The position numbers were made by a program, and so were the translations under genes. 32,000 bases of DNA from an archaeon GW2011_AR10. Lineage in GTDB: Archaea; Iainarchaeota; Iainarchaeia; Iainarchaeales; GW2011-AR10. A model generated the notes under the pieces. It was not told the origin of the DNA. It made no database searches and saw only the letters and a program-made list of their open reading frames with translations. Numbering within the stretch: position 1 is the stretch's first letter; each line of letters begins with the position of its first letter. This document shows, one piece after another, positions 5,436 through 24,400 of this stretch. The DNA lies in NCBI GenBank assembly GCA_000830275.1, contig CP010424.1:120001-152000 (forward strand). Reading direction: 5' to 3'.

Positions 5436-7076
5436 CTACATGTCCATTTCGCCCATGCCAGGAGGCATTCCGCCGTGGGGCATTGCCCCCGCCTTGCCTT
5501 TGCTGCTGCCAGCAATTATGTCATCAATCCTCAGCAGCATTTCTGCAACCTCTGAAGCAGAAGTCACTGCCTGAATTTTGACTCCAAGAGGCTCAATTAC
5601 TTTCAGTTTCTTCATGTCGTCAAGATATGCCTTGAATACGTTTACGCCTATGTACTTGCCGCCAGCGCTTGAGTGCTTTGAACGAAGACTGACAAGAGTG
5701 TCAATCGGGTCCATGCCTGCGGTTTCAGCCAGTGTTCTGGGTATCTCCTCAAGAGTTTCCGCAAAGCATTCAATTGCAAGCTGTTCCCTGCCGCCAACAG
5801 TTTTTGCGAACTCTCTTAGTTTCAGTGATACTTCTATTTCGCTTGCTCCTCCGCCTGCAACAACTTTGCCGTCTCTCAGTGCACTTGATGTTGAGCCTAT
5901 GGCGTCAACCACTGCGCGTTCTGCTTCGTCCACTACATGCTCTGAGCCGCCCCTCACAAGCAGTGAAACTGCTTTCGGGTTTTTGCAGCCTTCAACGAAC
6001 ACCATGTCATCGCCTGCAATCTTTCTTTCAACCACTGTGTTCGCTTTTCCAAGGTCTGAAGAACTCAAATCCTTTACCCTGCTTACAACCTTTCCGCCGG
6101 TTGCCCTTGCTAGTGCATTCATATCGGATTTCTTTACTCTGCGAACAGCCATGATTCCTTCCTTTGCCAGGAAGTGCTGTGCTATGTCATCAATTCCCTT
6201 CTGGCAGATTAGAACAGTTGCCCCTGAGTTCTTTACAGTTGCAACCATTTCTTTCAGCACTTTTTCCTCGTGGCCAAGGAGTGCCTCAAGCTCTTCAGGG
6301 GAAGAAATCTCAATCTTTGTGTCGGTTTCAGGTCCTTTGATTTCGAGGGCTGCATCCACCAACGCAATCCTGGCATTCTGGACCTTTTTCGGCATTCCCG
6401 AATGCACTACTTCCTTGTCAATGACAATGCCGTTTATCAGCTCCGAGTCAGACAGCGATGCCCCGACTTTTTTTTCAACCTTGATGTTGTCCTTGTCAAT
6501 AATTATTTTGCCGTTTTCTTCATCCGCAATCAATGTTACTGCCTTGACAACAAGTTTTGAGAGTTCCTCTGCGCCTTCAGTGCTTTTGCCAGTCATTGAA
6601 GTTAAGGCAATGCTTTCAAGCGTTTTAATGTCCTTGATGTCAACAGGGTCAGATAATTTCTCAAACAGCTCTTTTGTTTTCTTTGCTGCAATCCTGTAAC
6701 CCTTTATTATAACGCTGGGGTGAATCTCGTCATCGAGCAGCCTTTCAGCCCTTGCAAGCAGTCCGCCTGCAATTACTACTGCTGTTGTTGTGCCGTCTCC
6801 AACCTCGTCATCCTGCGTTTTTGCTATCTCCACCATCATTTTTCCAACCGGGTGGTCAATGCTCATCTCGCTCAAAATTGTTGCACCGTCGTTGGTGATG
6901 GTAACATCGCCCAAATCGTCAACAATCATTTTGTCCATTCCTTTTGGCCCAAGCGTGCTTTTAACAGCACTGGCCACTGCCTTGCCTATGAGAATGTTGA
7001 TTCTCTGCGCGTCCCTTCCTCTTGTTCTCCTCGTTCCCTCAGTCAAAAACACTACTGGTTGCTGTTGCTCAGCCAT
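5436..7076 (-). CDS. ths: Thermosome subunit (group II chaperonin, Cpn60/TCP-1 family)
   Basis: The 546-aa translation contains [37 protein letters not shown] and a C-terminal [12 protein letters not shown] tail. Confidence 0.97.
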
Positions 7077-7179
7077 AAAATACCAACCTCCTTTTCATCC
7101 AATCCAAAAAATAGTTGAATAATAAATTGCTGGATATAAGTGTTTAAAAGCCTTAGTGTTTTTTTGCTGGATATGGCTG

Positions 7180-7860
7180 TTAAGGGTTTCCTGTTTTTTC
7201 GAGTTTTTTTAGAACCTTTGAAAGCTCGTTTTTTTTCCTTCTGAGTTTAGTTTCTAGAATTATTATGTCTGCTCCAAGGTCCCTTAACCTGAATTCAGCA
7301 GTTGGGTTTTTTCCAGCCAATTTCTGTTCATTGTATTCTCTTGCACCTTTTTTTATTGTAATCGCGTCCTCCACTGATTTGATTTCTTTCCTAATGGCAG
7401 AAGCCCGGCTGGTTCTTTTCATTTCCATCGTTATTGGCTGTGAAAACCCTGCGCCCTGTGAGAACTGCAATGATTCCTCAGGAATAATGTGTGCGGCAAC
7501 AGCCTGCTTTCTAGTGGATTGAACAAACGCTGCGTAGCTTGCAGTAATTTCGATTGGGGCTCTTTTCGATAATTCATTGACAATTTCTAGATTTGAACGT
7601 TTTGGGTTTTCAATGAGCATTCTTATAATTTCTCCCTGAAGGCTCCCCGGCTTTGTACGTAGCGCTACTCTGTATCCTTTCTTGAAGCGCTCAATTCCAT
7701 TTTCTTTAAGCAGTGGTTTTCCTGTTTTTGCCACTGGTTTGCCTTCAACACCACTTACTTTGGCTTTTGGCTTTAGTGCTCTTGGCTGTTTTTCTTTTTT
7801 CTTTTGCCGTAGAGGCTGAACAGGCTTAAGCCGAAATCGTTTTGGGCCCATCAAAAACAA
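7180..7860 (-). CDS. Hypothetical basic protein (K/R-rich N-terminus, possible central wHTH, C-terminal coiled coil)
   Basis: The 226-aa ORF has coding-like composition. I recognise no family. The true start may be the second Met (MGPKRF). Confidence 0.55.
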   Translation of the reverse strand: MFLMGPKRFRLKPVQPLRQKKKEKQPRALKPKAKVSGVEGKPVAKTGKPLLKENGIERFKKGYRVALRTKPGSLQGEIIRMLIENPKRSNLEIVNELSKRAPIEITASYAAFVQSTRKQAVAAHIIPEESLQFSQGAGFSQPITMEMKRTSRASAIRKEIKSVEDAITIKKGAREYNEQKLAGKNPTAEFRLRDLGADIIILETKLRRKKNELSKVLKKLEKTGNP

Positions 7861-7920
7861 TAATAATGTGCTCCGAGAACTATTTAAACATTTTTTTGCT
7901 TTCCGCCTTTTTGTTCTATT

Positions 7921-8697
7921 TTATTTCACTATAATTATGTTTCCCCGGCCTTTCTTGAATTTCTTTACCTTGCCAGCATGCTCTAGTTCAGCTACAACAA
8001 GCGATGCCTTCGCCTCTCCATAAGGCAGTTTTTCTCGCAATTCCAGCTGGGTAAGCCTGCCGCCGTAGCGCTTTAACACTTCAAGGGCTTCTGTTGCTTC
8101 ACTGCTCAATGCATCCCCTGCTTCCTTGCCAGGCTGCCTTCCGCTTATCGGCTTTTCTGAATCGCTGCCAACAGCCATTTCGCTTTCTTTTACAGTTTTT
8201 GTTTCCGTAATTTTTTTTCTCCTGATTCTCGCGCCAGCAAAGAAAAGCGCAAGCGCAATGAGCACCAAAGCAAGGCCTGCTGTAATCGCCTTCAGGAATC
8301 CTGAGTCATTTGGTGTTTGTGTTCCATCAAAGTCTAAGCCAAGCTCGTTGAAGTCCTCGAACAAAAACTCATCCTCTCCCAGCGCAGGCAGCATTATCAA
8401 ATCCACCACAAAGTTGCCGTCACCTGATTCCAGTGTAATCGTTTCTATTGCCTCGTACTTGAGCTTGTTGTTCTCAAAGAACTGCGCGGTTAAAGTGTAA
8501 TTTCCCGGCGTGCTTATGCTGAAAGAGTAAGTTCCTTCAATTGCCACATCAGTCTGCTTTGGAGTTGTATTGATTTCCACAATAATGTTCTGCAGCGGTT
8601 CAAGCGTGTACCACTCAAATGCCGTGCCTGAAATTGTTGCAGCAAATGCTTGGTCTGCGAAAAGAAAAAGCAATAACAGGAGAGCCCCTGATTTCAT
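7921..8697 (-). CDS. Membrane-tethered winged-helix protein: signal peptide, beta-sandwich ectodomain, TM helix, cytoplasmic wHTH
   Basis: The N-terminus MKSGALLLLLFLFADQAFA looks like a signal peptide. A CarboxypepD_reg-like segment follows (ISGTAFEW...YSFSISTPGNYTLTAQF). The TM helix is ITAGLALVLIALALFFAGA followed by RIRRKK. The C-terminus is EVLKRYGGRLTQLELREKLPYGEAKASLVVAELEHAGKVKKFKKGRGNIIIVK (MarR/TrmB-like wHTH). Confidence 0.75.
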   Translation of the reverse strand: MKSGALLLLLFLFADQAFAATISGTAFEWYTLEPLQNIIVEINTTPKQTDVAIEGTYSFSISTPGNYTLTAQFFENNKLKYEAIETITLESGDGNFVVDLIMLPALGEDEFLFEDFNELGLDFDGTQTPNDSGFLKAITAGLALVLIALALFFAGARIRRKKITETKTVKESEMAVGSDSEKPISGRQPGKEAGDALSSEATEALEVLKRYGGRLTQLELREKLPYGEAKASLVVAELEHAGKVKKFKKGRGNIIIVK

Positions 8698-8781
8698 GAG
8701 AATAAATTGGACAAAAACAATTTTAATTCGTTTCTAAAGTTTTATGGCCCCCAATAAAGTTTTAATGACCAAACCGGGGCC

Positions 8782-8797
8782 AAATAAAGCTTTATTT
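8782..8797. promoter_or_regulatory. Perfect 16-bp palindrome AAATAAAGCTTTATTT flanked by CCGGGGC direct repeats in a divergent intergenic region
   Basis: The palindrome was read directly from the sequence. It lies between divergent genes 7921-8697(-) and 8874-10007(+). CCGGGGC occurs at 8774-8780 and 8801-8807. Confidence 0.35.
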
Positions 8798-8873
8798 TTT
8801 CCGGGGCTGAAAGAATGCTTTTAAATTTGCGCTCAGCATCTGTTTCAGGATTTTCCTTTCAGGAGGTGTTTTA

Positions 8874-10007
8874 ATGGAGAAAAAAGTTTTAGAAAAGAAA
8901 AATAAAAGGCTTTTGCTGCCAGCGCTGTTAATTGCTTTCTTGCTGGTTTTTTCATCGTTTGCGTTAGCGCGACTGAACACTGAGACTGGCTTGCGTGTTC
9001 AAAGTAGGGCGGCAGTAGAGGCAAATGTTCTTAATTCAACTGCTGCAGTAAACAGCAATAGTGTTCTTAATGAAGCAGATGACGACAATGATGCGGCAGA
9101 TGATGGAGTTGATTCAGGTGCAGGCATTGGAGCCAGAATAAGGGCTGAAATTGAGGGCGCCAAGGAAAAATTCGAGCAGAACAGGGAACGCTACCTTGAA
9201 ATAAGGGCAAACTACGTTGAAGCAAAGAGCAGGGTTGCAGCAAGCATTCAGAGCTTTAATGCAGTGAGGGCCAGAATTCGTTCAGCTGCTCCTGAAGACA
9301 GAAACCAGCTTGCAGTGCAGCTGAGGGTTCATGCGAGGGAAACTCTGCTGAACCAAGTGAATGCAATTCTCAACCACCTTGAAGCAATAAAGGACAAAGA
9401 GGTTGCTCCAGACAACATAGATGAACTTACAGAGTTCTTTTCAGAGGTTGAAGCAAGTCTTGAAAATGAGGAAATAACGCAGGAGGAACTCATTGAAATA
9501 TCAAGCGACATCAGGGTGTTCTGGAGAGAGCACCGCCTTGGGCTAAAGAAGGGAGTTGGCTTGGCAATCAATGCAAGGATTCAGGCTCATTTCCAGAAAG
9601 CAGAAACTTTTTCTGAACGGCTTTCAGAAATAATTGACAGACTGGAAGCTGAAGGAAAAGATGTTTCACTGCTTGAAAGGGGCCTTGCAAAACTGGATTC
9701 AGACATCGAAAAATTCAGGAGCGCATACGCAAGGCTCAGAGAGCAGTACTCTGAAGCAGATTCAAGGCAGGAATTCAACGATGTTCTAACAAAAGGCCAC
9801 AGGCTGCTGAAGGCAATGAATGAGCAGCTGAAAAAGGATTTCAGGCTAATGAATGCTCTCTTCAAGGCAACAAGGGAACTCATTGTGTCAGAGGAAATAA
9901 GCGGCTCAACTTCGGCAGACATAGAAGCCGGGGTTGAATCATCTGAAACAGAAATAGAGTTCGATGCTGCCCTGGCTGAATTTGTTGAGGTGACTGCCGA
10001 TGAGTAG
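8874..10007 (+). CDS. Secreted or membrane-anchored alpha-helical coiled-coil protein, unknown function
   Basis: A strong ribosome-binding site AGGAGGTG (8861-8868) precedes the ATG. The N-terminal hydrophobic segment is LLLPALLIAFLLVFSSFALA. The rest is E/R/A/L-rich heptad-like sequence. Confidence 0.75.
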   Translation: MEKKVLEKKNKRLLLPALLIAFLLVFSSFALARLNTETGLRVQSRAAVEANVLNSTAAVNSNSVLNEADDDNDAADDGVDSGAGIGARIRAEIEGAKEKFEQNRERYLEIRANYVEAKSRVAASIQSFNAVRARIRSAAPEDRNQLAVQLRVHARETLLNQVNAILNHLEAIKDKEVAPDNIDELTEFFSEVEASLENEEITQEELIEISSDIRVFWREHRLGLKKGVGLAINARIQAHFQKAETFSERLSEIIDRLEAEGKDVSLLERGLAKLDSDIEKFRSAYARLREQYSEADSRQEFNDVLTKGHRLLKAMNEQLKKDFRLMNALFKATRELIVSEEISGSTSADIEAGVESSETEIEFDAALAEFVEVTADE

Positions 10008-10230
10008 CGCTGCAGTTGCATTGCTGCTGCTTGCAGCTGTTTTTGTTTTTGGCTGCACGACTCCGCAGGAAAAAGCAACCACTCAAAACAGCTCCCTTCA
10101 GGAAATAGGTGATTCACAGCAGGAAATAGCAGTGCTTGACTCAGAAATTCAGGAGCTGGAGCAACTCTTGGCTGACTCAGAATACTCAGAAGAAGACTTC
10201 CTTGCACTGGATAATGGCACTTTCCAGTAA
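10000..10230 (+). CDS. Small putative lipoprotein
   Basis: The ATG overlaps the upstream stop (ATGAGTAG). MSSAAVALLLLAAVFVFGC has a lipobox-like FGC. The mature part is acidic. Confidence 0.6.
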   Translation: MSSAAVALLLLAAVFVFGCTTPQEKATTQNSSLQEIGDSQQEIAVLDSEIQELEQLLADSEYSEEDFLALDNGTFQ

Positions 10231-10276
10231 GTGCCTTAATCCTTCTTTTTCTTTTTTTATTTTACTTTTTTCTCAT

Positions 10277-10531
10277 TTATTCTAATTGTTGTGCAAATTT
10301 TTTTCGATGCAGTTCTTTTCTCAGTTGTTTCAAACGGCCCTCAAAGTTTTTTCGTCTGCCCACGTCAGTTAAAGGTGTTTTATTCAATTGCTTTTCAAGA
10401 TTTTCAATAATTTTCAAAATACCACTCGTGCTGTCTGCTTGTTTTGCCCGTTTTTGTTCTGTGGTTTTCTCTTTTGGCTTAATGGTTCCAATTCTTTTGA
10501 GAAAAGAATCAGGCACTACTATTCTTGGCAT
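10277..10531 (-). CDS. Small basic hypothetical protein
   Basis: The 84-aa ORF is K/R-rich. I recognise no family. Confidence 0.45.
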   Translation of the reverse strand: MPRIVVPDSFLKRIGTIKPKEKTTEQKRAKQADSTSGILKIIENLEKQLNKTPLTDVGRRKNFEGRLKQLRKELHRKKFAQQLE

Positions 10532-10633
10532 TTTTTCCCTAAATAAATTAATGTTAACTCGTTATTAATTCTATGGGTTTCTGCAATTATTGGGGCTGGT
10601 CAGCAAAAACTCTTAATTGTTATTTCCCACTTA

Positions 10634-11200
10634 TTGGTTATGCGCAAAAACCTTGAAGCATACCTCCATGAAAAAAAACTGCATTTTGTTGAAAAAATAT
10701 CCAAGGGTTACAGCAGTGAAGTTTTTCTGGTTGAAAACCGCAATGGAAAAAAGTTTGCCCTGAAACTCGAGAAGGAAAAAAGCCCGCGCGTAAACATGGT
10801 GCAAAAAGAAGCTGAAAACCTGAAGCTTGCAAACTCGTGTGGAATCGGCCCAAAACTTTTTGATGCTGATGACAAGCGGGGAATTGTGCTGATGGAATTC
10901 ATTGAGGGAAAAACTTTCAGTGAATGGCTGTTTGAGACAAATGTCTCAAAACATAAATTGCAGTCATTCCTAACTTATTTATTTGTGCAAGCAGAGCAAT
11001 TGGATAAAATTGGCCTTGATCATGGCCAGCTTGCAGGGAAAGGAAAAAACATTCTTGTTCGAAACAGCAAACCTGTAATAATTGATTTTGAGAAGGCATC
11101 GCACAACAGGAAGTGCAGGAATGTAAACCAATTAAAATCCTTGATTTATTTGAACCCCCACTCTGCAATACCGAAAATGGTGAAAGAGATTCTTGGGTAA
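10634..11200 (+). CDS. Small atypical protein-kinase-fold protein (RIO/Bud32-like), non-canonical catalytic loop
   Basis: Motifs are GYSSEVFLV (G-loop-like), KFALKLEK (VAIK-like Lys), IVLMEFIEG (hinge), LDHGQLAGKGKNILV (an HGQL where HxD is expected) and IIDFEKAS (DFG-like). The probable real start is ATG at 10640. Confidence 0.65.
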   Translation: MVMRKNLEAYLHEKKLHFVEKISKGYSSEVFLVENRNGKKFALKLEKEKSPRVNMVQKEAENLKLANSCGIGPKLFDADDKRGIVLMEFIEGKTFSEWLFETNVSKHKLQSFLTYLFVQAEQLDKIGLDHGQLAGKGKNILVRNSKPVIIDFEKASHNRKCRNVNQLKSLIYLNPHSAIPKMVKEILG

Positions 11201-11210
11201 GCCAAAAATA

Positions 11211-11513
11211 TTAAGGGTGTTTTGGGCTGTTTCCAATTTTTCTATTTCTGCGGTATGCAACCGGTTTTCTTCTTTTGCCTTTGCCAAGGTTCAGGTAAAG
11301 CTCAGAAGCAGTGCCGTAAATGAAAGGCTCTTTTCCAATGCCGAGTCTTGCCCCGACTTTTGGCTTCCATGCTCTTCTGTCAACCATTGCTGTGCCTTCA
11401 GGCAATGCAACCATTTTTACTTTTTTCTTTTTCTCGTTTTCTGTTATTTTTTCGAAATGGAAAATGGTGTATTTTTTTGAAAGATTTCTTGCCTTTTTGC
11501 TCTTAGACGGCAT
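11211..11513 (-). CDS. Hypothetical basic protein
   Basis: The ORF is 100 aa, or 67 aa from the internal MVALPEG. I recognise no family. It is convergent with the kinase-like gene. Confidence 0.4.
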   Translation of the reverse strand: MPSKSKKARNLSKKYTIFHFEKITENEKKKKVKMVALPEGTAMVDRRAWKPKVGARLGIGKEPFIYGTASELYLNLGKGKRRKPVAYRRNRKIGNSPKHP

Positions 11514-11798
11514 CCAAAACCTTTTTTTGAATTTTTTTACTTATAATTGTTTTTGCAATCACGATTGAAATTTTTTGAACATTTTCTTTGCAATTCTTAT
11601 CTCATTTTTTTTCTATTCTGCGGTCAATTATCTCCTAAGTTGTTTTTACTCTTTTTTTGAAAGCTTTTCATGTCTTTTCCTGCGCTTTGCCTGCTTTGCT
11701 GTTCCAAGGCCTCACCTTTCTGGACCATACAATAGATTAGTTCAAACCGCTATTTATTTCTTCCCCAAAGCTAAAAAAATAGAAAAATTGTTGACCGT

Positions 11799-12197
11799 TT
11801 ATTTTACGAATTTTCGGTCAACCTCAAGTATAAGCACGTCGCATGCTGCCTTGATTGCCTCAAGCTGCTTTATGATTCTCTCTTTTTCTTTCTCGATGTC
11901 CTGGATGTTCTCATAGGGTTCGATTGCTTCCCTGAGCATTGCGCCGTCAACGTAAGTGTAGGGGTGCGCGTCCATCTTCTTTGCAATCCGTTCAACCATT
12001 TTTCCTAGCCAGATGTTCATTTCGTCCTTAACTTGGCCCTTGATTTGCTTTCCGTTGCTTAAGTGCTTTCTGAGCATGTTCACAATCGTTGCTCTCGGAA
12101 AAGGGAGCTTTGATTCATCAACTTCCTCTCCGGATTCCTCGATTTCCTCAATTTCTTGTGCAGCTGTTTTCTCTTCCTCTATTTTTCCTTTAGCCAC
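11799..12197 (-). CDS. Histone-fold protein with an acidic N-terminal tail and an extra C-terminal helix
   Basis: LPFPRATIVNMLRKHL (alpha1), QIKGQ (L1), VKDEMNIWLGKMVERIAKKMDAH (alpha2) and VDGAMLREAI (alpha3) match the histone/NF-Y/NC2 fold pattern. A 30-aa E-rich tail precedes it. A ~35-aa helix IEKEKERIIKQLEAIKAACDVLILEV follows. Confidence 0.7.
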   Translation of the reverse strand: MAKGKIEEEKTAAQEIEEIEESGEEVDESKLPFPRATIVNMLRKHLSNGKQIKGQVKDEMNIWLGKMVERIAKKMDAHPYTYVDGAMLREAIEPYENIQDIEKEKERIIKQLEAIKAACDVLILEVDRKFVK

Positions 12198-12313
12198 CTA
12201 AACACCCCTTAAAGTGCATTTTTCCTCAACTTAACCCCAAAAATAGTAATACTAAAATCCTCTACCGTTCAGATTTTAAAGGCTACTATTGCGAATATAG
12301 TTGGGGTGATTTT

Positions 12314-12511
12314 TTGGCCAGAGTAATAATCCATGAAGATAAAAGCCCGGTTGAAGTCAGGGTTGGGGGAGAGAGCAGGTGGATTTGCCAGTGCGGCCTT
12401 TCAACTGCTAAGCCTTATTGCAGTGGCGCGCACAAAATGACTCAGGACGAGGAAGCAGGAAAACTCTACAAATACGAGAGCGGCAGAAGGACTGAAGTCA
12501 GAAGGCCTTAA
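12314..12511 (+). CDS. CDGSH-type iron-sulfur domain protein
   Basis: CQCGLSTAKPYCSGAHK fits C-x-C-x2-S-x3-P-x-C-[DS]-G-A-H. It has a TTG start with GGGGTGAT 5 nt upstream. Confidence 0.8.
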   Translation: MARVIIHEDKSPVEVRVGGESRWICQCGLSTAKPYCSGAHKMTQDEEAGKLYKYESGRRTEVRRP

Positions 12512-12526
12512 CCGCTTCTTCAGCTT

Positions 12527-12673
12527 TCAATTTTTTACCGCGTGCCTGATTATTTCAAGGTTGCATGACTTGTGAGCCTTGCACCATGCCTCACATTTTT
12601 CTGCCCAGCTTTTTTCTTTGTATTTCAGTTTACACTCTTCGCACTGGAAACCGCTCAATGTTTTTTTAACCAT
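12527..12673 (-). CDS. Unannotated 48-aa Cys-rich (putative zinc-binding) protein
   Basis: It is not in the ORF track (under 60 aa). The minus-strand translation is MVKKTLSGFQCEECKLKYKEKSWAEKCEAWCKAHKSCNLEIIRHAVKN, with CxxC, CxxxC and one further Cys. It lies immediately downstream of C/D sRNA copy 1 and its T7 run. Confidence 0.5.
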   Translation of the reverse strand: MVKKTLSGFQCEECKLKYKEKSWAEKCEAWCKAHKSCNLEIIRHAVKN

Positions 12674-12690
12674 TCAAATCATTTCTCTTT

Positions 12691-12697
12691 AAAAAAA
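12691..12697 (-). terminator. Oligo-T (T7) tract after C/D sRNA copy 1
   Basis: The minus strand reads GGCGTTTTTTTAAAG directly 3' of the sRNA terminal stem. Oligo-T tracts are the usual archaeal termination signal. Confidence 0.4.
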
Positions 12698-12704
12698 CGC
12701 CTTT

Positions 12705-12759
12705 TCAGTCCGCGCATCTTTCTTCACAGCTTGCGCTCCGAATCATCGTCAGTCATCAT
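12705..12759 (-). ncRNA. C/D-box sRNA (2'-O-methylation guide), copy 1
   Basis: The minus strand reads AUGAUGA (C) - CUGACGAUGAUU (12 nt) - CGGA (D') - GCGCAAGCU (9 nt) - GUGAAGA (C') - AAGAUGCGCGGA (12 nt) - CUGA (D). The core is 55 nt, both guides are exactly 12 nt, and GA dinucleotides are retained in all boxes. The short terminal stem is GCC/GGC. Confidence 0.7.
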
Positions 12760-12803
12760 CGGCAATAATAGATTTCCTAAATCATGTTTATCTTTGTTTC
12801 TTT

Positions 12804-14249
12804 TCAGCCATATCCATATTTTCCGATTGCCATTGATTTGAAGTTTTCAGGGTCTATTTCTTTTGTGAGAGACATTCTGGTTTCGAATAATTCTTTTGCG
12901 GTTAAATTAACACCGTCATAAGGCGGAGTGTAAAAGTTCCATAGTTCTGGATAATTGTCAATAGGGTATTTTGTGTTCATGTTCCTAAAAGTCGCTAAAG
13001 GAATAAGATTGAATATGCCGTAACGCGCAATTGTCCTGCCCTTGCTTTTGCTTTTCAACAGCAGCCTAATTTTTTTGTACTCTGAACGGATAGCAGCCAT
13101 GGTATTTTGATTTGCCTGAACGGGAAGTATCACACCAAAAGCGATTTCCGGAATTTGCTTTTTCGCAAGAGCAGAAATTATAGCATTCTGCACATCAAGC
13201 CCCTTCAGTTTATGATACTTTTCGCGCTCATCAAAAGTCTCTATAGGAAAGTATAACCTATAACAACCCTTTATTGCCCCACCAGTTTCTTCCCTAAAAA
13301 ATAATGCATTAAAGAGTTCCTCGTCAACCTTCCCATCACGAAAAAGCAGCCCTACCTCTAAGCCATTCGGGAACTCCCAGGCAAAACCAAGCCTTGCAAT
13401 TTCTTTAAACAACAGCATAACCTTTTTCCTCCCGTCAGGGGAAGCCGTTTGCAAAAGCAAATTGTCATCAACAATGTTTAGGGATTTTACCCCGCTTTCA
13501 CGATAAAACTCAAGGGAATTCACAGAGCTTTCAAGGTCAAGCGTATTGTATTTGCTCAGTCTCGATTCGCAAAAATCGCAGTCTCTCGGGCAGCCCTTCG
13601 TGAAATAAATGAAACCTATCGGAAAAGGAACGCCTTCAGGAACAGGCCCGTCATGGCTGTCCTTATACTCGTCAATATTCTCAAGCAAGCTGAAATCGGG
13701 CTTGCACAATTTTTTTAGAGGGTGAGGATAATTCCATACAATCTTCTGCTCGCTCCAGTCTTTATCCAATTCAACTGGGTTAAAGTCTTCAGTAAAAACC
13801 TTGTCAGCTCCGCATTGAAGGTAAAAACCAGGTCTTGCCTTGGCATCAGCACCGCCGACCATTATTTTTACATTAGGCTTTTTTGCTCTCGCATAGTGCA
13901 TGAACTCTTTCACAATAGAGGATTCAAAAGAAAAGTGGGTTGAAATGCCTATTACATCAGACCATTCGATAAGCTCTTCAGCCGAACTAAACGGTGCCCC
14001 AAACATGTAGCAATTTATTTTATAGCCCTCCCATTCGAATGTCCTGTAACGCTCTTTCCTGTCAGGCTCTTTTATTCGCAGGTCAAGAAGCCTTGCCTCA
14101 TACGTTGACTCGTTTTTTATTACCGAACCAACACGCAAAAGGCTAGCTGGCATGACCCTGTTGTAAACATTGTTCAGGAAAATAGGCGAGTCAAAGTAAC
14201 CTTTAAGCTCGAGGCCTAGGGCAGGAAGCTGGATAAGTCCAATGTTCAT
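12804..14249 (-). CDS. B12-binding-domain radical SAM enzyme (class B-like)
   Basis: The 481-aa ORF has an N-terminal Rossmann-like B12-binding-type domain (DVIGISTHFSFES...NVKIMVGGADAKARP). The CxxxCxxC cluster motif is FTKGCPRDCDFCES. The ATG overlaps the stop of the upstream MTase (ATGA at 14246-14249). Confidence 0.85.
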   Translation of the reverse strand: MNIGLIQLPALGLELKGYFDSPIFLNNVYNRVMPASLLRVGSVIKNESTYEARLLDLRIKEPDRKERYRTFEWEGYKINCYMFGAPFSSAEELIEWSDVIGISTHFSFESSIVKEFMHYARAKKPNVKIMVGGADAKARPGFYLQCGADKVFTEDFNPVELDKDWSEQKIVWNYPHPLKKLCKPDFSLLENIDEYKDSHDGPVPEGVPFPIGFIYFTKGCPRDCDFCESRLSKYNTLDLESSVNSLEFYRESGVKSLNIVDDNLLLQTASPDGRKKVMLLFKEIARLGFAWEFPNGLEVGLLFRDGKVDEELFNALFFREETGGAIKGCYRLYFPIETFDEREKYHKLKGLDVQNAIISALAKKQIPEIAFGVILPVQANQNTMAAIRSEYKKIRLLLKSKSKGRTIARYGIFNLIPLATFRNMNTKYPIDNYPELWNFYTPPYDGVNLTAKELFETRMSLTKEIDPENFKSMAIGKYGYG

Positions 14250-15031
14250 TTTTTCTTCACTAAGAATACGAAATCTCCAACGTTATTGTCACTGAAAATT
14301 TTCTCTTTGGGCCACACTTTTTTTACAGAAATAACTTCTAAATCGGCAGCAGCCAAGTGTTTCGTAAAAAGGCTGTAATGCGACTTCCATTCGTATTCTC
14401 TGTCCCTTTCATACTGCATTACCCGAGAAAGGAGCGATATTCGCTCATCTTTTATTTCATGATTATCAATGCAGTCGACTATTCTTTTTGCATAAAACTC
14501 AATGGCAGCAGAGTCCCTTTCTACTCTATTTGAATATTTTGGGATTATGTTCTCCATAAACACAACTATTCCGTCGTCTTTGAGATGGTTAAAAATGTTA
14601 TTCAAAAAATCAGGCTTGCGCTCATCCTCTATGTGGTGATATGCAGAACTAGCTATTATTACGTCAAACTTTCTTGGATGCCTGAAAAGAACAGCATCAT
14701 GATTTACCAACTCGAAGCGAGGGTCGGAACCGATTCTCTTCTTTGCATCATCAAGGTATTTCTGGCTTATGTCAACACCAACAAAGGACTCCAAACGATT
14801 TTTGAAATCAGAACTCAAAAAATCCAGTATCAATTCAGTGCCACAGCACACATCCAAAATAGATATTTTCCTTCCAACGCGCTTTGCGTAGTCAAGAAGG
14901 TGTTTAGAGCCTTGAATCAGCATTTCCCTTTCTCCGGGAATATCCTCCACTTTGTTATATAACTCAGCATTATCCTTGTACGTGAAATCAGCGGATATGC
15001 TGCCAGATACATAAAAATCTCTTGAATACAC
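14246..15031 (-). CDS. Class I SAM-dependent methyltransferase
   Basis: Motif I-like is ILDVCCGTELILDF, followed by VGVDIS (motif II region), FDVIIASSAYHHI and DGIVVFME. The track ORF runs to 15130, but its first 33 codons read like AT-rich promoter DNA. A GTG at 15031 preceded by GGGGG is the likelier start. Met69 is an alternative. Confidence 0.8.
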   Translation of the reverse strand: MYSRDFYVSGSISADFTYKDNAELYNKVEDIPGEREMLIQGSKHLLDYAKRVGRKISILDVCCGTELILDFLSSDFKNRLESFVGVDISQKYLDDAKKRIGSDPRFELVNHDAVLFRHPRKFDVIIASSAYHHIEDERKPDFLNNIFNHLKDDGIVVFMENIIPKYSNRVERDSAAIEFYAKRIVDCIDNHEIKDERISLLSRVMQYERDREYEWKSHYSLFTKHLAAADLEVISVKKVWPKEKIFSDNNVGDFVFLVKKK

Positions 15032-15140
15032 TAAAAACCCCCAATAATATAATTGGCCACGTCTACAAATATATAATTTTTGACCTAATTTTATAAAAAA
15101 ATAACAAAATTTATATTCTTTAATGTACATATTTTATAAT

Positions 15141-16136
15141 ATGAGGCATTTAGAGTCTGGGCTATTGGAACTTGATTCTGTTGACAAAAAAACCCTCCAT
15201 GAACTCGACTTAGACGCAAGAATGCCTATATCCAAGATAGCAAAAAATTTGCGCATTTCAAGGGTTGTTTCAGAATACAGGATTAGCAAAATGCAGGAAA
15301 CGGGCCTCATCAGGGCCTTTAGTTCAATGATGGATCCCTGCAAATTCGGTTTTTCAAGCTGGAAAGTCTACCTAAGATTCCACAACATGAAACAGGGAAT
15401 TGAAAAGAAAATGATTGACTATCTCGTTCAAAATAACAAAGTTTGGTGGGTCGTAAAATGTTATGGAAAATTTGACCTGCTTTACAGCGTGTTCGCAGAA
15501 AGCTTTTATGAGTTCAATGAAGTAATCAACAAATTTCACGAATTGTTTGGGGAATATATTCTTGACGAATCCATAAACAACCATCTTGAGCCACAATATT
15601 TCTCAAGAGGCTACTTAACGGAAAAGCCGCCAGAAGTTCTCTGTGAGCCATTCATGAAAAAACCAGTCAAAGAAAAAATTGATGAAACCGACATTAGTAT
15701 AATGAAAGAATTGGGAAAAAATTGCAGAATCCCCCTCACTGTGCTTGCAAGCAAACTGGGCATAACCCCTCGAATAGCAAGCTACAGAATAAAGGAATTA
15801 ATGGAGAAAAAAATAATCGTTTTCAACAGATTAAGCCTTGATGTGAATAAACTCGGAATGGACTTTTACAAAAGCTTACTATATCTGAAAAATATCGATG
15901 CCGAAAATTTTGAAAAGCTGGTTGCATATTGCAGGCAAAACAAGTTCATTAATGAATGCGTAAGATCTGTTGGGGAATGGCAAATGGAAATTGAGCTGGA
16001 AGTGAATGATTTCAAGCAATTCAATGAAATAATGGACGACATGAAAATAAATTTCCCAAACTTAATCATCAGAACTGAACCACTTTTATTGCACAAAGAA
16101 TACAAATCAGAATTCAATTTTTTGGATTATCTATAA
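15141..16136 (+). CDS. Fused tandem Lrp/AsnC-family transcriptional regulator (two HTH plus effector-domain units in one chain)
   Basis: There are two HTH_AsnC-like segments. The first is KTLHELDLDARMPISKIAKNLRISRVVSEYRISKMQETGLI. The second is ISIMKELGKNCRIPLTVLASKLGITPRIASYRIKELMEKKII. Each is followed by ~90 aa of RAM-domain-like sequence. The gene is divergent from the MTase-rSAM operon across a ~100-bp AT-rich region. The start could also be 15123. Confidence 0.8.
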   Translation: MRHLESGLLELDSVDKKTLHELDLDARMPISKIAKNLRISRVVSEYRISKMQETGLIRAFSSMMDPCKFGFSSWKVYLRFHNMKQGIEKKMIDYLVQNNKVWWVVKCYGKFDLLYSVFAESFYEFNEVINKFHELFGEYILDESINNHLEPQYFSRGYLTEKPPEVLCEPFMKKPVKEKIDETDISIMKELGKNCRIPLTVLASKLGITPRIASYRIKELMEKKIIVFNRLSLDVNKLGMDFYKSLLYLKNIDAENFEKLVAYCRQNKFINECVRSVGEWQMEIELEVNDFKQFNEIMDDMKINFPNLIIRTEPLLLHKEYKSEFNFLDYL

Positions 16137-16207: not shown

Positions 16208-16453
16208 TTATCGGTATACTTTCTCGCGGTGTTCGAACGTGTGAAATTCGATGCGGTTCTGTTTTGGTTCGAAAATCAACCGGAACGGCTTGATGCGAAT
16301 GCTTTTCTTTCCCGCTAGTTCGCGGCCCAAGAATTTTCCTTTAGCCGGATTAGACAAGACGCGTTCGACGGCTTTTTGGAGTTTTCGCATAGTGCCCTTG
16401 TCTTTGATTTTGGTCATCTGTTTTTTGAACTCGTCCGAAAAGACCGCGTCCAA
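16208..16453 (-). CDS. RelE/ParE-family type II toxin
   Basis: The 81-aa translation reads FKKQMTKIKDK....KAVERVLSNP..GKFLGRELAGKKSIRIKPFRLIFEP..NRIEFHTFEHREKVY, a typical RelE/ParE pattern. Confidence 0.8.
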   Translation of the reverse strand: MDAVFSDEFKKQMTKIKDKGTMRKLQKAVERVLSNPAKGKFLGRELAGKKSIRIKPFRLIFEPKQNRIEFHTFEHREKVYR

Positions 16454-16458
16454 AAAAA

Positions 16459-16680
16459 CTACCTTCTGAAGAATTCGTCCAGTTCTTTCTTGGAACCAAC
16501 CGTCGTGAAATGGCCTTCTTTGAAATCCTTTTCGCTTGCCTTGATGCTTTCCAGTAGGTTTTTATTGTTCAGTATTTCGGCGGTTTCAATCAGCGAATCC
16601 AACTCGTCACGCAACCGCTTGGCTTCTTCGATTTTCTTGGCTGGAATCAACACCGTTGCGCTGGTCGCCATTATCAACAC
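16459..16680 (-). CDS. Cognate antitoxin (RelB/Phd-like)
   Basis: It lies 5 nt upstream of the toxin. It contains IETAEILNNKNLLESIKASEKDFKEGHF, a pattern typical of archaeal antitoxins. The likely real start is ATG at 16671. Confidence 0.7.
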   Translation of the reverse strand: MLIMATSATVLIPAKKIEEAKRLRDELDSLIETAEILNNKNLLESIKASEKDFKEGHFTTVGSKKELDEFFRR

Positions 16681-17302: not shown

Positions 17303-17821
17303 TTAAGGTGTAATCCTTTCCAGCGAATAGTAGTTAATGTCGTTTTCTGCGTCAACAACTGCAATCAGTGCCTTTGTTTTCAGGTTCCCTGAAAGCCTCA
17401 CAATCCTGCTGAGTTCCGGCATTGAAAGCCTTTCATCATGCAATGCTACATGAATAACCCACTGTGTGTGCTCTTCTCCCGGCTTTTTGCCGCGGGGGTA
17501 AACGCGGAAGTCGAACCCAAATTTGAAGCCGGTTTTAATAACGTAGCCTCTGTCTCGTACATCCCTGAAAACAATGAATTTATTGTAAAAGTTTTTCTCC
17601 CGCTTTTCCGCTTGCTTGAGCAATTCCTCGAAAGAAACCTTTTCTCCGTTGCTGTCCTCTATTTCAATTTTGTCTTTCTCAAGCAAAAAAAGTGCTTCCC
17701 TCAGGTCAAGCACCAGCCTTGAGTTGTCACGCTCGCCGAAACCCTTCTGTATAAGCTGGTCCTTTACTTTTTTCTCTTCAACGAGAACCTTGTTTGCAGC
17801 AAGCAAAGCCATACTGTTCAC
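17303..17821 (-). CDS. endA: tRNA-splicing endonuclease (short, homotetramer-type size)
   Basis: The 172-aa translation contains VFRDVRDRGYVIKTGFKFGFDFRVYPRG....HTQWVIHV and SRIVRLSGNLKTKALIAVVD, the classical EndA catalytic-domain pattern. Confidence 0.9.
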   Translation of the reverse strand: MNSMALLAANKVLVEEKKVKDQLIQKGFGERDNSRLVLDLREALFLLEKDKIEIEDSNGEKVSFEELLKQAEKREKNFYNKFIVFRDVRDRGYVIKTGFKFGFDFRVYPRGKKPGEEHTQWVIHVALHDERLSMPELSRIVRLSGNLKTKALIAVVDAENDINYYSLERITP

Positions 17822-19303: not shown

Positions 19304-19816
19304 ATGATTGTGGTTGATGCCTCACCTCTTATATTGACAGCCAAAACAGAGTTGCTGGACATTTTCCTGCAATCAAAAGAAAAAGCAATTATTTCAGAAG
19401 AGGTTGAAAAAGAGGCAACAAAAAAAGATTCTTTTGACGCCATTCTCATAAAACAACGGATCAAGGAAAAGAAGATAACAGTAAAAAAGGTAAAAGGAAA
19501 AAAGCAGGTTGAAAAAATCGCAAAGGATTTCAAGCTGCAAAAAGGAGAAGCGGAAACAATAATCCTTTGCATTGAAAACAAATGCAAAGGAATCGCAACA
19601 GATGATTATAACGCAATGAAAGCATGCACAGTGGTTGGAATAAAATATATATCAACACTGGCAATATTAGTAAATCTCGCAAAAAAAAGGAAACTCAGCA
19701 AAGAAGAGGCAATCCTTAAAATAGAACAACTTGCCAAATATGGAAGATACTCAAAAGAAATTATTGATGACGTTAAAAACAGGATAGGTGGTGCAAAAAA
19801 TGCAGAAAATACTTAG
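19304..19816 (+). CDS. PIN-domain protein (DUF3368 / PIN_3-like, VapC-type toxin)
   Basis: It contains MIVVDASPLILTAKTELLDIFLQ...ISEEVEKE...GEAETIILCIE......ATDDYNA. The acidic residues sit at the expected PIN positions. Confidence 0.75.
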   Translation: MIVVDASPLILTAKTELLDIFLQSKEKAIISEEVEKEATKKDSFDAILIKQRIKEKKITVKKVKGKKQVEKIAKDFKLQKGEAETIILCIENKCKGIATDDYNAMKACTVVGIKYISTLAILVNLAKKRKLSKEEAILKIEQLAKYGRYSKEIIDDVKNRIGGAKNAENT

Positions 19817-20096
19817 CATGAGAATAGACGAAGATGACCTGGAATTTGTCAAACTTGAGGCAAAAGAGGAGAAAGCAGACAAAGCAAAAATAATACGCGA
19901 ACTCATAGAAAAAGGCAGGCTCCAAGTATCTATAGAACAATACAGCAAAGGAAAAATATCGCTCGGAAAAGCAGCTGAAAAAGCAGGAATAACAATAAGC
20001 GAAATGATGGATAAACTTGCAGAACTAGGCATACAAAACCCCATGACAAAAGAACAATACCTGCAAGGACTCAAAAACGCGGAAGAAATGCTATGA
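19800..20096 (+). CDS. UPF0175-family antitoxin-like protein
   Basis: IEQYSKGKISLGKAAEKAGITISEMMDKLAELGI matches the UPF0175 HTH signature. The ATG at 19800 is preceded by GGTGGTG. It overlaps the PIN gene by 17 nt. Confidence 0.7.
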   Translation: MQKILSMRIDEDDLEFVKLEAKEEKADKAKIIRELIEKGRLQVSIEQYSKGKISLGKAAEKAGITISEMMDKLAELGIQNPMTKEQYLQGLKNAEEML

Positions 20097-21466: not shown

Positions 21467-24400
21467 ATGAGTTCCAAAAGTTGGTTTCTGCTGGCAATCG
21501 TGCTGGTTTTTGCTTCAGCTGCAGCTGCTGCAGTTCCAACAGATTATCAGGGTTATTGGAAGTTTGATGACGGTTCTGGCTCAATAGCAAATGACTCTTC
21601 TGTGAATGGAAACGATGGGAATTTGTTTGGAAACCCTGTTTGGTCAACTGGAAAACTAAATGGCGCTTTACAGTTTGACGGTGTTGGCGATTACGTTAAT
21701 TTGGGCACAAGCAGTTTTGGCTTAACAAGCGGTTCTTCAACGCAGCTTTCAATTGTTTTCTGGGTTTATGTTGCTAATGTGGGCAACAACCAAACCCTAG
21801 TAACCCGCAGCTCTCTCGTTAAACCGTTTTTGGTTGAGTTTAATGGCGGCAGGCTTAGAACAGGAATTAGAACTGCTTCAGGTGCCAATTATTTGACTTC
21901 AAGTGCTGCCTTTCCCACAAACCAGTGGGTGCATGTTGCGTTGACTTATGATGGCAGCATGAGGCGAATTTACATTAATAGTGCTGTTGATGCTTCAGTT
22001 GCTTTGTCCGGCGCGGTTTCATTTGATGGAGGAGAAACAACAACTGTTGGCACAAGGCTTGGCAGCACACCACAATACCTTAATGGAACTCTGGATGAAC
22101 TGCAGATATACAACAGGGCATTAACTGGCACAGAAGTTTTGGATTTGTTTAACGCCGCAAGCCCTTCCCCTCCTGATACAACTCCTCCTTCTGTTTCTGT
22201 TACTTCTCCTTTGAGTGGTGCAACTGTTTCTGGTACTATTACTGTTTCTGCTAGTGCGAGTGATAATGTTGGTGTTTCTGGTGTTCAGTTTTTGGTTGAT
22301 GGCTCGAATCTCGGCACTGAGGATGTTTCTTCTCCTTATTCGGTTTCGTGGAACACTTCTTCTTTTGCCAATGGTTCGCACACTCTTACGGCTAGGGCGC
22401 GAGATGCTGCTGGCAACACAACCACTTCCTCTCCGGTTACGGTTAACGTGAGCAATGGTGCTCCGCCTCCTCCGAGTGGCACTTCGCATTATGTCACCCC
22501 TAATGGGGCCGGTTTTAGGAATGGCAATGATTGGAACAGTGCCTGGAGCATTTCAACAATCAGTTGGAGCAGTGTTTCCCCGGGGCACACTATTTATTTT
22601 GCTGGCGGGAATTATAATTCAGGAATAACCGTTCCGAAGGACGGTAGTTCGAGTGGCGGGAACATAACTCTCAAGAGGGCAACCCAATCAGAAACAGGGA
22701 GCGTTCCTGGATGGCAATCAGGTTTTGATTCAGTTGTTGAATTGCAGAATATTGTGTTGAGCGAAAGGAGCTATATCACTATTGATGGTGTTGTTGATAA
22801 TGGAATGAAAATAACTAGGGCTCCTTTGCCATTCTCACAGCAATTTGGGTCCAAGGTCATTGAATTTGGCGGGCCAGCTCCGGGTAGTACTACTGATATA
22901 ACATTGAAAAATCTTGAGGTTGTCGGCCTTGGCTATAACTTGTGCCAGGGCGGCTCGCTAATCGGCATTAGGGATGGGGGGCTTAGGCAACTGGACAATC
23001 TGCTGATTGATAATGTCAATTTCCATGATGAGATTCAGGTCGGATTGAGGTTAGAGGATCACACTAATGTTGTTCTGAGGAATTCGGATTTTTATAACAT
23101 GCAGTCAAACATAAGGGCTTGCCCGCCTTACCAGAACAATGGTTCCGGCGGAGGCATTCCCTGTTCTTCGGGTTGCCCAGCTGGAACTGCCTGTTATCAT
23201 GGCACTTTCTGTGCTGTGCTTAGGCCTTCGGGAAACCCCATGAGCTGCAGTGCAACCTCTCAATGCGGTTCTGCAAGCATGTTCAATTGCCTGAGCAACC
23301 AGTGTGTTTTGCTTGATAGTTTCAATGATTTCCAGCCCAAGTCATGCAGTGTCAGGGATGACTGTCCTGTCGGAAGCTTTAGCTGTGTTAATAACAGGTG
23401 TGTAGCCATAGACTTGTCTACTTCAAGTTCTAACCTTATTGCCTGCACTGCCGGCTCACAGTGCCCGGATGCGCAGTCGGATAACTGTGTTGATGGTTTT
23501 TGCAGGCCAGAGAACCCCCACGGAGAGCACATAGCCGCTTTTGGGGTGCTGAATGGGTTTGTGGTTGAGAATAACACATTCAGGAATCAGTATCTTGGGC
23601 CCTCGAGTCTTGGAGGCACTGGTATTTCATTTGCCGACACCACTGGAATAGTGGAAATAATCAATAATGTGTTTTTCCACATTAATAGTCCAGTATTCGA
23701 GAACTCTGATGGATTAGGCCCAGGTTTCCAATACATGAATATAGTTGGCAATACTTTTGTCGGGTACAGGATTCCTATATCTTATAACATCCCGATGAAA
23801 CTCTACAACAACATTTTTTGCAATGACGAGTCTCTTCATCCGAATTCAATTACTCGTTGGGCTCCGACCGATGCCTTGGAGTACGCTAACAACGCGTTCT
23901 GTGAAGATTCACGCTCAGTTCCCGGTGGGAATTACGATTACCCGCACGGCATTAATGGCGTGCTGATACCCCAATCAGAAATAGCTAACACGTTTGAGAA
24001 TATCATTGGCTTGGATTTCAGGTTAAAGCAGGGTTCCCTGCCAATTAATGCAGGTTTGAATATGGGTGCAGCATATGCATTTGATATCGATGGAACCCCT
24101 AGGCCACAGGGCTCAGCATGGGATATTGGGGCTTTCGAGTTTGCGAGTGGTGCTCCTGGTGATACTACTCCTCCAAGTGTTTCTGTTACTTCTCCTTTGA
24201 GTGGTGCAACTGTTTCTGGTACTATTGTGGTTTCTGCTAGTGCGAGTGATAATGTTGGGGTTAGTGGTGTACAATTCATGGTTGATGGTGTTAATCTTGG
24301 GGTTGAGGATGTTTCTTCTCCTTATTCGGTTTCGTGGAGCACTTCTTCTGTTGTGAATGGTTCGCATGCTTTGAGTGCTCGTGCTCGTGATGCTGCTGGC

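Follow-up and report, generated by a model that had tools for sequence, protein, structure and literature searches.

What do two S-adenosylmethionine (SAM) dependent enzymes, encoded as a pair opposite an apparent regulator, act upon in an archaeon? The question is raised by positions 120,001 to 152,000 of contig CP010424.1 (assembly GCA_000830275.1) of archaeon GW2011_AR10; this stretch of 32,000 nucleotides is referred to here, at its full length, as the window. Three genes at 12804-16136 of the window code for a radical SAM enzyme with a B12-binding domain, a class I methyltransferase and, on the other strand, a protein made of two Lrp/AsnC units. A preliminary description of this DNA saw in them an orphan two-enzyme modification module opposite a divergent tandem-Lrp gene, and this is borne out, as are all three open reading frames (ORFs), which the ORF list places where they had been described. 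The cassette is considered here to have about an even chance of serving the tailoring of a small metabolite, i.e. a free amino acid or a small acid that resembles one. Its features are as follows.

12804..14249, minus strand: radical SAM enzyme with B12-binding domain, 481 residues (ORF, Pfam, AlphaFold2, Foldseek)
14246..15031, minus strand: class I methyltransferase of the MM_2633/CysG/BelI-like subgroup, 261 residues, GTG start
14246..14249, minus strand: ATGA stop/start overlap of the methyltransferase and radical SAM genes, read from the sequence
15032..15122: divergent intergenic region, AT-rich, 91 bp, with presumed promoters and a putative Lrp operator
15123..16136, plus strand: tandem Lrp/AsnC protein, 337 residues; the alternative start at 15141 (M7) gives 331

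Organization and conservation of the cassette

The methyltransferase stop codon overlies the radical SAM start codon as ATGA (minus strand, 14249-14246), as had been described, and this overlap suggests that translation of the two enzymes is coupled. The upstream end of the methyltransferase gene required revision. Its maximal ORF is 14246-15130 (294 residues), but homologues align with it only from residue ~44-48 onward, and the deposited gene call (P0100) starts 261 residues from the end, at a GTG at 15031 behind a GGGGG run; the onset of homology together with the deposited start thus gives 14246-15031 as the real gene, and a protein of 261 rather than the previously described ~294 residues. 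With the true start the divergent genes are separated by a 91-bp gap, in place of the 8-bp head-to-head overlap of the maximal ORFs. Several imperfect AT-rich inverted repeats lie in this gap; a conserved operator was sought in it and only these repeats were found, which at such AT richness cannot be judged against chance.

The triad was mapped with tblastn, the three window proteins serving as queries against retrieved loci, together with precomputed gene calls. It is conserved beyond this genome in at least three other lineages, among archaea as well as bacteria.

Parcubacteria GW2011_GWA2_48_9 (L001-3, L006, L042): radical SAM enzyme 55%, methyltransferase 45%, Lrp protein 40% identity
Nanoarchaeota metagenome-assembled genome (MAG) (L010, L036): radical SAM enzyme 46%, methyltransferase 42%, Lrp protein 35% identity
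Unassigned Logan contig (L035): radical SAM enzyme 63%, methyltransferase 39%, Lrp protein 51% identity

All three of these cassettes have a divergent tandem Lrp gene (326-340 residues), a methyltransferase gene of ~270 codons and then the radical SAM gene, with a divergent gap of 105-140 bp and the same 4-nt overlap of the two enzyme genes (L001 8001-8004, L035 4169-4172, L036 5764-5767). A probable fifth methyltransferase-radical SAM pair is formed by P0074 and P0101 of a Logan contig, and on a Woesearchaeota contig (L021) a distant sister radical SAM protein (28% identity) is adjoined by a divergent tandem Lrp (26% identity). We infer that the three genes have been transferred together, as one cassette, between DPANN archaea and bacteria of the candidate phyla radiation (CPR). 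The earlier statement that such a module is not expected in a streamlined archaeal genome was overstated, as sister clades of the radical SAM enzyme occur in Woesearchaeota, Nanoarchaeia, Micrarchaeota, Doudnabacteria and a Methanosarcinales-labelled MAG.

The L035 cassette (2199-6529) has features of its own. Its methyltransferase is fused to an N-terminal DUF711/UPF0210 domain, giving a protein of 657 residues; no characterized function of DUF711/UPF0210 was found in a literature search. The radical SAM gene is followed there by a gene for a 183-residue protein and a DUF4430 (transcobalamin-like, B12-binding-like) gene. Two integrases and a DUF87/TraG-like ATPase are encoded next door (6799-15295), and suggest an integrated element.

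The B12-domain radical SAM protein

Pfam recognizes a B12-binding domain at residues 96-155 of the radical SAM enzyme (E 6.6e-8, 32.9 bits, gathering score 32.1) and a Radical_SAM domain over residues 214-367 (E 9e-6, 26.4 bits, short of its gathering score, 29.5). The sole invariant cysteines in an alignment of 23 homologues are those of C220-x3-C224-x2-C227 (CxxxCxxC); neither auxiliary-cluster cysteines nor the conserved N-terminal cysteines of a MiaB-type cluster domain appear in that alignment. An AlphaFold2 model built on it (pLDDT 89.6, pTM 0.90) consists of a Rossmann domain and a TIM barrel. The cluster motif within a partial TIM barrel is that of the radical SAM superfamily, many barrels of which are matched by Foldseek, and by its N-terminal Rossmann cobalamin-type domain the protein is, as judged from sequence and model, of the class B type. 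The best Foldseek matches in the PDB are OxsB (top), CysS, TokK and MiaB (E ~1e-9; TM-score on the query 0.45-0.58; identity 11-14%), and the OxsB, TokK and CysS structures align with the model across both domains.

Beyond this class, the enzyme could be placed in no family that has been characterized. The class B equivalogs tested in NCBIfam were PhpK/Sden_1168, HpnR, BchE, QCMT/MJ_0865, KedN5, BzaD and ArsL; the enzyme scores under every curated NCBIfam cutoff, its best match being the Sden_1168 P-methylase (33.3 bits against 575), with HpnR at 24.9 bits (E 7e-6; cutoff 650) and PhpK at 24.6 (cutoff 600), and representatives of the sister clades likewise lie beneath all NCBIfam cutoffs. A phmmer search of the PDB finds no radical SAM enzyme, only a few weak matches (E >= 0.006) to unrelated proteins, and the family profile gives weak partial PDB matches (E >= 1e-3), TokK at E 0.0036 and CysS at E 0.21. 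Placement in a characterized family was therefore rejected, all matches by NCBIfam, PDB phmmer, PDB profile and Foldseek being remote or sub-threshold.

A profile search of 1.84 billion representatives yielded 2013 relatives at E<=1e-3, of which 216 reach E<=1e-10 and 80 reach E<=1e-30. Three clusters at 50% identity make up the tight family, which has a patchy distribution, and the ~95 full-length homologues (41-63% identity) are mostly bacterial. In a neighbor-joining tree the DPANN/CPR sequences are basal, the alphaproteobacterial loci form one clade and the soil sequences a large crown. The window enzyme itself is found on 21 contigs and shares 100% identity with the "cobalamin-dependent protein" recorded at NCBI for a Candidatus Diapherotrites archaeon (MAG). 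A literature search on the family and on its Lrp/LysE, SfmD, DPANN and chorismate-mutase contexts found nothing relevant; a paper on the lipid divide was set aside as an account of the enzyme because it concerns Tes/MSS, a separate radical SAM family.

The methyltransferase partner

The methyltransferase matches Pfam Methyltransf_25 at E 5.6e-15 (Methyltransf_25, 12 and 11 together range from E 1e-11 to 6e-15) and has the seven-strand Rossmann-like fold, motif I loop and acidic ribose residue of class I SAM-dependent methyltransferases. Its family is small (17 database matches). Motif I had been called degenerate; its letters are ILDVCCGTE as described, but D60-x-C62-C-G64-T is conserved throughout the family, as is D87, with D60, C62 and G64 invariant, and the motif is thus a family-wide signature rather than a sign of decay. 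An S-A-Y-H-H segment is also conserved, and its HH pair (H132/H133) is invariant. The AlphaFold2 model (pLDDT 92.1) shows an extra helical insertion at residues 169-228. Foldseek gives 1264 methyltransferase-type matches in the PDB at E<=1e-3, the best of which are MM_2633 (3DTN), CysG and BelI, at TM-scores of 0.58-0.64. In a sequence alignment the HH pair falls on His122-His123 of CysG, with the Asp191 and Arg22 positions lying outside the alignment. These two histidines belong in CysG to a His-His-Asp Ca2+ site that positions the substrate carboxylate, and the methyl ester that CysG and BelI make is a transient protecting group (PMC11408123). A function as carboxylate O-methyltransferase is offered for the window protein as a lead only.

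The fused double regulator

That the 331-337-residue protein is two complete Lrp/AsnC units in tandem is supported from several sides. Two HTH_AsnC stretches are found (E 1e-15), in helix-turn-helix (HTH) plus RAM units at residues ~11-165 and 180-337; the RAM domain is seen directly in the second unit only (Pfam E 5e-4), and near-full-length Lrp-type NCBIfam matches (AsnC, LrpA) span residues 16-135 and 186-306. Aligned with one another, the halves share 24% identity (E 2e-13). Both score best in NCBIfam against genuine regulators (56-70 bits), and the top PDB matches of the whole protein are the true regulators FL11/PH1519 and LrpA; it is, by sequence, an Lrp/AsnC-family transcription regulator with predicted DNA binding.

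The further suggestion that this regulator is dedicated to the enzyme pair did not hold in its strict form. The tandem-Lrp family has 22 members and is confined to DPANN/CPR-type metagenomes; its three close homologues that were looked up (67%, 52% and 50% identity) all lie on DPANN contigs without the methyltransferase-radical SAM pair, and pair-linked and unlinked members interleave in a neighbor-joining tree. One more locus was seen on a short contig in the sample series of the Parcubacteria cassette (L065 114-2354), where a tandem Lrp gene (39% identity) is followed by broken radical SAM-like fragments; the cassette there is frameshifted or degraded, unless the assembly is in error.

Gene neighborhoods and the probable substrate

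The DPANN/CPR context of the radical SAM gene is the triad, bar a lone Micrarchaeota homologue that lies among pur genes; after it come an isochorismatase-like gene and, two genes further, a gene for 3-dehydroquinate synthase II (DHQS-II). Most lineages have the radical SAM enzyme without this methyltransferase, so that the pair is not obligatory. Six alphaproteobacterial-type loci were compared (Polycladidibacter, two Salinarimonas, Pelagibius, Azospirillum and one further metagenome contig). In every one the gene directly downstream of the radical SAM gene codes for a LysE-superfamily exporter, best matched in NCBIfam by the RhtB/LeuE type, and wherever upstream sequence exists (four loci) a single Lrp/AsnC regulator is encoded divergently. 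A Haliangium homologue has two divergent LysR-type regulators and neither methyltransferase nor exporter.

Neighbors of another kind are found in soil, Acidobacteria and Thermoanaerobaculia sequences. Nonribosomal peptide synthetase (NRPS) modules, either condensation-adenylation-thiolation or adenylation-thiolation, adjoin the radical SAM gene in three loci (L045, L053, L047), type II thioesterases do so in two (L043, L046) and a polyketide synthase in one (L041). An Acidobacteria cluster (L004) has an SfmD-type peroxidase, a catechol-type O-methyltransferase, two cytochromes P450, two CMAS-like methyltransferases and a SAM synthetase (MetK), and a related assortment of O-methyltransferase, amine oxidase, short-chain dehydrogenase/reductase and MetK occurs in L008. 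L052 (1250-11773), whose radical SAM homologue is 44% identical, codes for an iron-type alcohol dehydrogenase, a phosphonopyruvate-decarboxylase-type thiamine pyrophosphate decarboxylase, a D-2-hydroxyacid dehydrogenase, an aldehyde dehydrogenase and also glutamate-synthase-like proteins. The set could belong to a phosphonate or phosphinate pathway, and the family may thus serve other amino-acid-like scaffolds too. As a separate observation, the sister-clade radical SAM gene of the Methanosarcinales-labelled MAG (L019 12966-16360) has genes for a core-MetE-like methionine synthase, a CBS-HTH regulator and MetK in its vicinity, which is a methionine/SAM-cycle neighborhood.

Lrp regulators, LysE/RhtB exporters and NRPS lines together point to a free amino-acid-like substrate or product, and not to the targets that had been listed for the pair, namely nucleic acids or nucleotides (in defense or anti-defense), lipids and peptides. 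A scheme can be drawn on this basis. The tandem Lrp protein would be a single-chain pseudo-dimer of the feast/famine type that binds the 91-bp AT-rich region 15032-15122 and tunes transcription of the methyltransferase-radical SAM operon in response to an amino-acid-like effector, and the ATGA overlap would let both enzymes be synthesized together. The radical SAM enzyme, its CxxxCxxC motif holding a [4Fe-4S] cluster, would cleave SAM to a 5'-deoxyadenosyl radical, abstract hydrogen from an unactivated carbon and, by analogy to TokK and CysS, pass a methyl group from methylcobalamin to that carbon of the free amino acid or small acid. The methyltransferase would put a second methyl on a heteroatom, most plausibly the carboxylate oxygen and possibly the amine nitrogen, giving a doubly methylated amino-acid derivative. 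It probably acts after or alongside the radical SAM enzyme rather than making its substrate, because most bacterial homologues of the latter occur without it.

As to the class of substrate, an aromatic amino acid or a chorismate-derived acid is the leading candidate, tentatively and at low confidence. Five independent links, each weak, lead to it: a trpEGDCFBA operon beside the Parcubacteria cassette; the tryptophanyl-tRNA synthetase (TrpRS) gene 1.8 kb from the window cassette (TIGR00233, 185 bits, above cutoff); the DHQS-II gene near the Micrarchaeota homologue; the SfmD/O-methyltransferase tyrosine-tailoring set in Acidobacteria; and a sister-clade protein (P0159, 616 residues, from an 8.3-kb Logan contig) with 29% identity to the window enzyme over residues 68-464 and a C-terminal type II chorismate mutase (CM_2, E 1e-12, 48.5 bits, above the gathering score). 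The most specific form of the proposal is that the family C-methylates, by a radical reaction not known before, a free proteinogenic amino acid (perhaps an aromatic one, or its chorismate-derived precursor), and that the DPANN/CPR cassette, exchanged between the two domains, converts a scavenged amino acid to a doubly methylated product; this is improbable as it stands.

A number of points weigh against small-metabolite tailoring or its details. No substrate gene is visible in the cassette. The radical SAM family is, by sequence, fairly small and class-B-like, without a characterized member; cobalamin binding is suggested only by the borderline Pfam match and the fold; and OxsB and BchE, which have the same architecture, do not methylate. 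HH pairs are common in class I methyltransferases, which weakens the analogy to CysG, and the tandem-Lrp family is tied to the pair only in part. The bacterial context loci are only 41-50% identical and need not transfer to the archaeal enzyme, and the DPANN/CPR enzymes and sister clades lie among housekeeping genes, a setting that also fits a macromolecular target. Finally, an aromatic-pathway gene occurs within about five genes in three of five DPANN/CPR loci, compared with ~16% by chance, which is a rough estimate.

Alternative explanations

These housekeeping surroundings are the starting point for the proposal that the radical SAM enzyme methylates a nucleotide of tRNA or rRNA or a residue of a ribosomal or other protein, as Mmp10 and QCMT do on methyl-coenzyme M reductase, with the methyltransferase adding a second methyl to the same target. 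The DPANN/CPR genes and sister clades are found near TrpRS, EndA, a GluRS/GlnRS-type (class Ic) aminoacyl-tRNA synthetase, RNase HII and ribosomal-protein-like ORFs (the last identified by N-terminal sequences only), Foldseek also matches MiaB with its N-terminal Rossmann-type domain, and a macromolecular target would agree with the lack of a visible substrate gene. However, CxxxCxxC is the only invariant cysteine motif, with no auxiliary-cluster cysteines; the family is patchy, at three clusters and 80 close representatives in 1.84 billion; NCBIfam gives no QCMT (MJ_0865) match at E<=0.01 (sister clades reach no more than 65 bits, the cutoff being 360) and Mmp10 is absent among its matches; and the Lrp, LysE exporter and NRPS or natural-product contexts are hard to reconcile with it. 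For the DPANN enzymes such a function has less positive support than small-metabolite tailoring and is judged unlikely. Somewhat more doubtful still is that the enzyme is no methylase at all and carries out a cobalamin-assisted rearrangement, cyclization or oxidation, in the manner of OxsB or BchE, on a methyl ester made by its partner (the order of BchM to BchE, or the protecting-group logic of CysG). OxsB is the top Foldseek match, P0099 and the sister-clade representatives match BchE weakly, and the methyltransferase is encoded upstream, is apparently coupled in translation, and resembles CysG and BelI, whose methyl ester is transient and protecting (PMC11408123). Yet most radical SAM homologues do without this methyltransferase, MetK adjoins the radical SAM gene in two acidobacterial loci, which fits heavy use of SAM as methyl donor, and the similarities are all remote (TM-score <=0.58). 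Tailoring of a peptide that is made on the ribosome and modified after translation (RiPP) is quite unlikely. Class B radical SAM enzymes occur commonly in pathways to RiPPs, sister-clade proteins match RiPP C-methyltransferases weakly in NCBIfam, and a precursor might be sought in a small ORF, e.g. the 48-residue Cys-rich ORF (MVKKTLSGFQCEECKLKYKEKSWAEKCEAWCKAHKSCN...) at 12527-12673 on the minus strand, 130 nt downstream of the radical SAM gene, on the same strand and after a T-run, which itself has a weak sub-threshold DUF7128 match. This ORF was rejected as a precursor because it has no counterpart downstream of the radical SAM gene in the Parcubacteria and Nanoarchaeota cassettes; moreover none of the cassettes encodes a RiPP recognition element, a protease or a transporter, and the alphaproteobacterial trio has an amino-acid exporter and no peptide gene.

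The remaining proposals are less probable again. Methylation of isoprenoid, glycerol dialkyl glycerol tetraether or hopanoid-like membrane lipids is suggested by a JGI auto-annotation, by the weak HpnR match (E 7e-6, 24.9 bits) and by the abundance of the family in Acidobacteria and soil metagenomes, but the HpnR score is far beneath its cutoff of 650, there are no lipid-biosynthesis neighbors in the loci with examined flanks (L001-L023, L035-L056), the AlphaFold2 secondary structure has no predicted membrane segment, and the exporter, Lrp and NRPS contexts point elsewhere; this is very improbable. Hardly to be credited either is that the Lrp-like protein is an enzyme or chaperone subunit of the AhbA/B or NirDL type, the trio modifying a tetrapyrrole or other cofactor. 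NirDL is likewise a fused double Lrp-like protein of ~330 residues, weak matches to AhbA (30.7 bits) and to a NirDL-like HTH (E 0.006) are seen, and in the Ahb and heme d1 pathways siroheme decarboxylase is followed by radical SAM enzymes (PMC4145669). Against this, AhbA reaches 30.7 bits of a cutoff of 140 and AhbB 18.3 of 125, compared with 56-70 bits for regulators; each HTH motif is strong (E 1e-15); the gene runs divergently and is not co-operonic; the alphaproteobacterial partners are ordinary single Lrps; and no tetrapyrrole genes occur in the window or related loci. The least probable proposal of all is anti-phage defense or anti-defense by modification of nucleic acids or nucleotides, which the preliminary description had entertained and which finds no support, PADLOC being negative for the radical SAM enzyme (best match E 0.0098, 12.7 bits, not meaningful). 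A ParE-type toxin-antitoxin (TA) pair does adjoin the cassette, L035 is next to integrases and a TraG-like ATPase, and the methyltransferase domain matches the PADLOC mad2 model; this match is only to a generic methyltransferase domain, however, no nuclease, helicase or other effector is present, and the cassette is stable, with constant housekeeping flanks in four assemblies. Tailoring of a free amino acid or similar small acid has more positive support than any of these alternatives and is retained as the preferred account.

Genomic setting of the cassette in the window

The ParE toxin gene (16208-16453, minus strand, 81 residues, E 4e-7) begins 72 bp past the Lrp stop codon, and its DUF2683-like partner (16459-16680, minus strand, 73 residues) lies upstream of the toxin gene. 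To this extent the cassette does stand among TA genes, as had been described, with one pair adjoining the Lrp gene; but it is a stable chromosomal feature and does not lie within a mobile region. The neighborhood is identical in four independent assemblies, the GC content has no island-like anomaly, and the wider flanks are housekeeping genes, i.e. TrpRS, a tRNA-splicing endonuclease (17303-17821, minus strand), a RIO-type kinase and a thermosome, with a CDGSH Fe-S protein as well.

Other features of the window and of its relatives may be recorded here. The gene for the CDGSH-type Fe-S protein (12314-12511, plus strand) is convergent with the radical SAM gene, and in the Parcubacteria cassette a ferritin and a DUF1858/HesB-type Fe-S assembly gene lie behind the Lrp gene (L001 4949-6016); the CDGSH, ferritin and HesB-type neighbors might supply clusters or serve as redox partners. 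Precomputed Pfam places a second TA-like pair, DUF3368 and UPF0175, at ~19304-20096. A tRNA at 2995-3099 (minus strand) is found by Rfam at 57.5 bits, over 105 nt against a 71-position model, and not by ARAGORN; it is probably an intron-containing archaeal tRNA, and the splicing endonuclease gene is in the same window. Two very large ORFs on the plus strand, 21467-24634 (1055 residues, with Laminin_G_3 and Big_7 by precomputed Pfam) and 25879-29214 (1111 residues), probably code for surface or adhesion proteins typical of DPANN episymbionts.

Significance

The components of the cassette are of known kinds: a class B radical SAM enzyme, a class I methyltransferase and an Lrp regulator. New are a radical SAM family without a characterized member, a conserved methyltransferase partner that bears the DxCCGT/HH signature, a tandem Lrp in one chain, and a cassette common to ultra-small archaea and bacteria. 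Many class B families remain without characterization, which tempers the surprise. Class B enzymes do chemically difficult methylations, very few of them on free primary metabolites, and cultured Alphaproteobacteria, among them Salinarimonas rosea DSM 21201 and Polycladidibacter stylochi, carry this family, so that its function is directly testable. For DPANN and CPR organisms small-metabolite tailoring would mean that a B12-requiring reaction is kept in otherwise minimal genomes, and that a regulator-plus-enzymes cassette is common to archaea and bacteria, its tandem Lrp having an identifiable ligand. If the doubly methylated product is real, it could be a signal, an antimetabolite, a compatible solute or a shortcut to an amino acid that the cells cannot otherwise make, a B12-dependent piece of "minimal metabolism" in symbionts reliant on external cobalamin; and if a methylated amino acid feeds the Acidobacteria NRPS lines, the enzyme would be useful for natural-product engineering.

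Relation to known systems

TokK (7KDX), CysS (9N1B-D) and the non-methylase OxsB (5UL3) share with the window radical SAM enzyme the N-terminal Rossmann cobalamin-type domain followed by the CxxxCxxC barrel. The window enzyme differs from them in length (481 residues compared with 620-730) and in its small distinct C-terminal region, and at 11-14% identity the relationship is barely detectable by sequence. TsrM, a tryptophan 2-C-methyltransferase with a B12 domain and a radical SAM domain, is a known class B enzyme that acts on a free amino acid. The likeness to it lies in the proposed free, possibly aromatic, amino-acid substrate and is functional speculation only; TsrM is absent from the PDB phmmer, profile and Foldseek results for the radical SAM enzyme.

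In the "methyl-ester first" logic of BchM/BchE and BioC, a class I methyltransferase is combined with a B12-domain radical SAM enzyme or other downstream chemistry on a masked carboxylate (for BchE, PMC13598231). Any relation of the window cassette is remote at best, P0099 matching BchE at E 7e-4 and the NCBIfam match to BchM being at E 0.0097, with no tetrapyrrole context here. The methyltransferase has its best matches, by structure and by sequence, in CysG and BelI, of the cystargolide and belactosin pathways, and in MM_2633, with which its SxxxHH(I/L)E segment aligns; it differs from them in identity (17-19%), in a motif I of DxCCGT rather than DLGAGTG and in the extra insertion at 169-228.

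The regulator resembles FL11/PH1519, LrpA and LysM in having HTH_AsnC and RAM domains in each half and in being encoded divergently to its presumed target operon, and the alphaproteobacterial relatives of the cassette, with a single Lrp and a LysE/RhtB exporter, are likewise comparable to Lrp-exporter pairs of the Lrp-BrnFE type. The window protein is set apart from FL11, LrpA and LysM by carrying two complete units in one chain.

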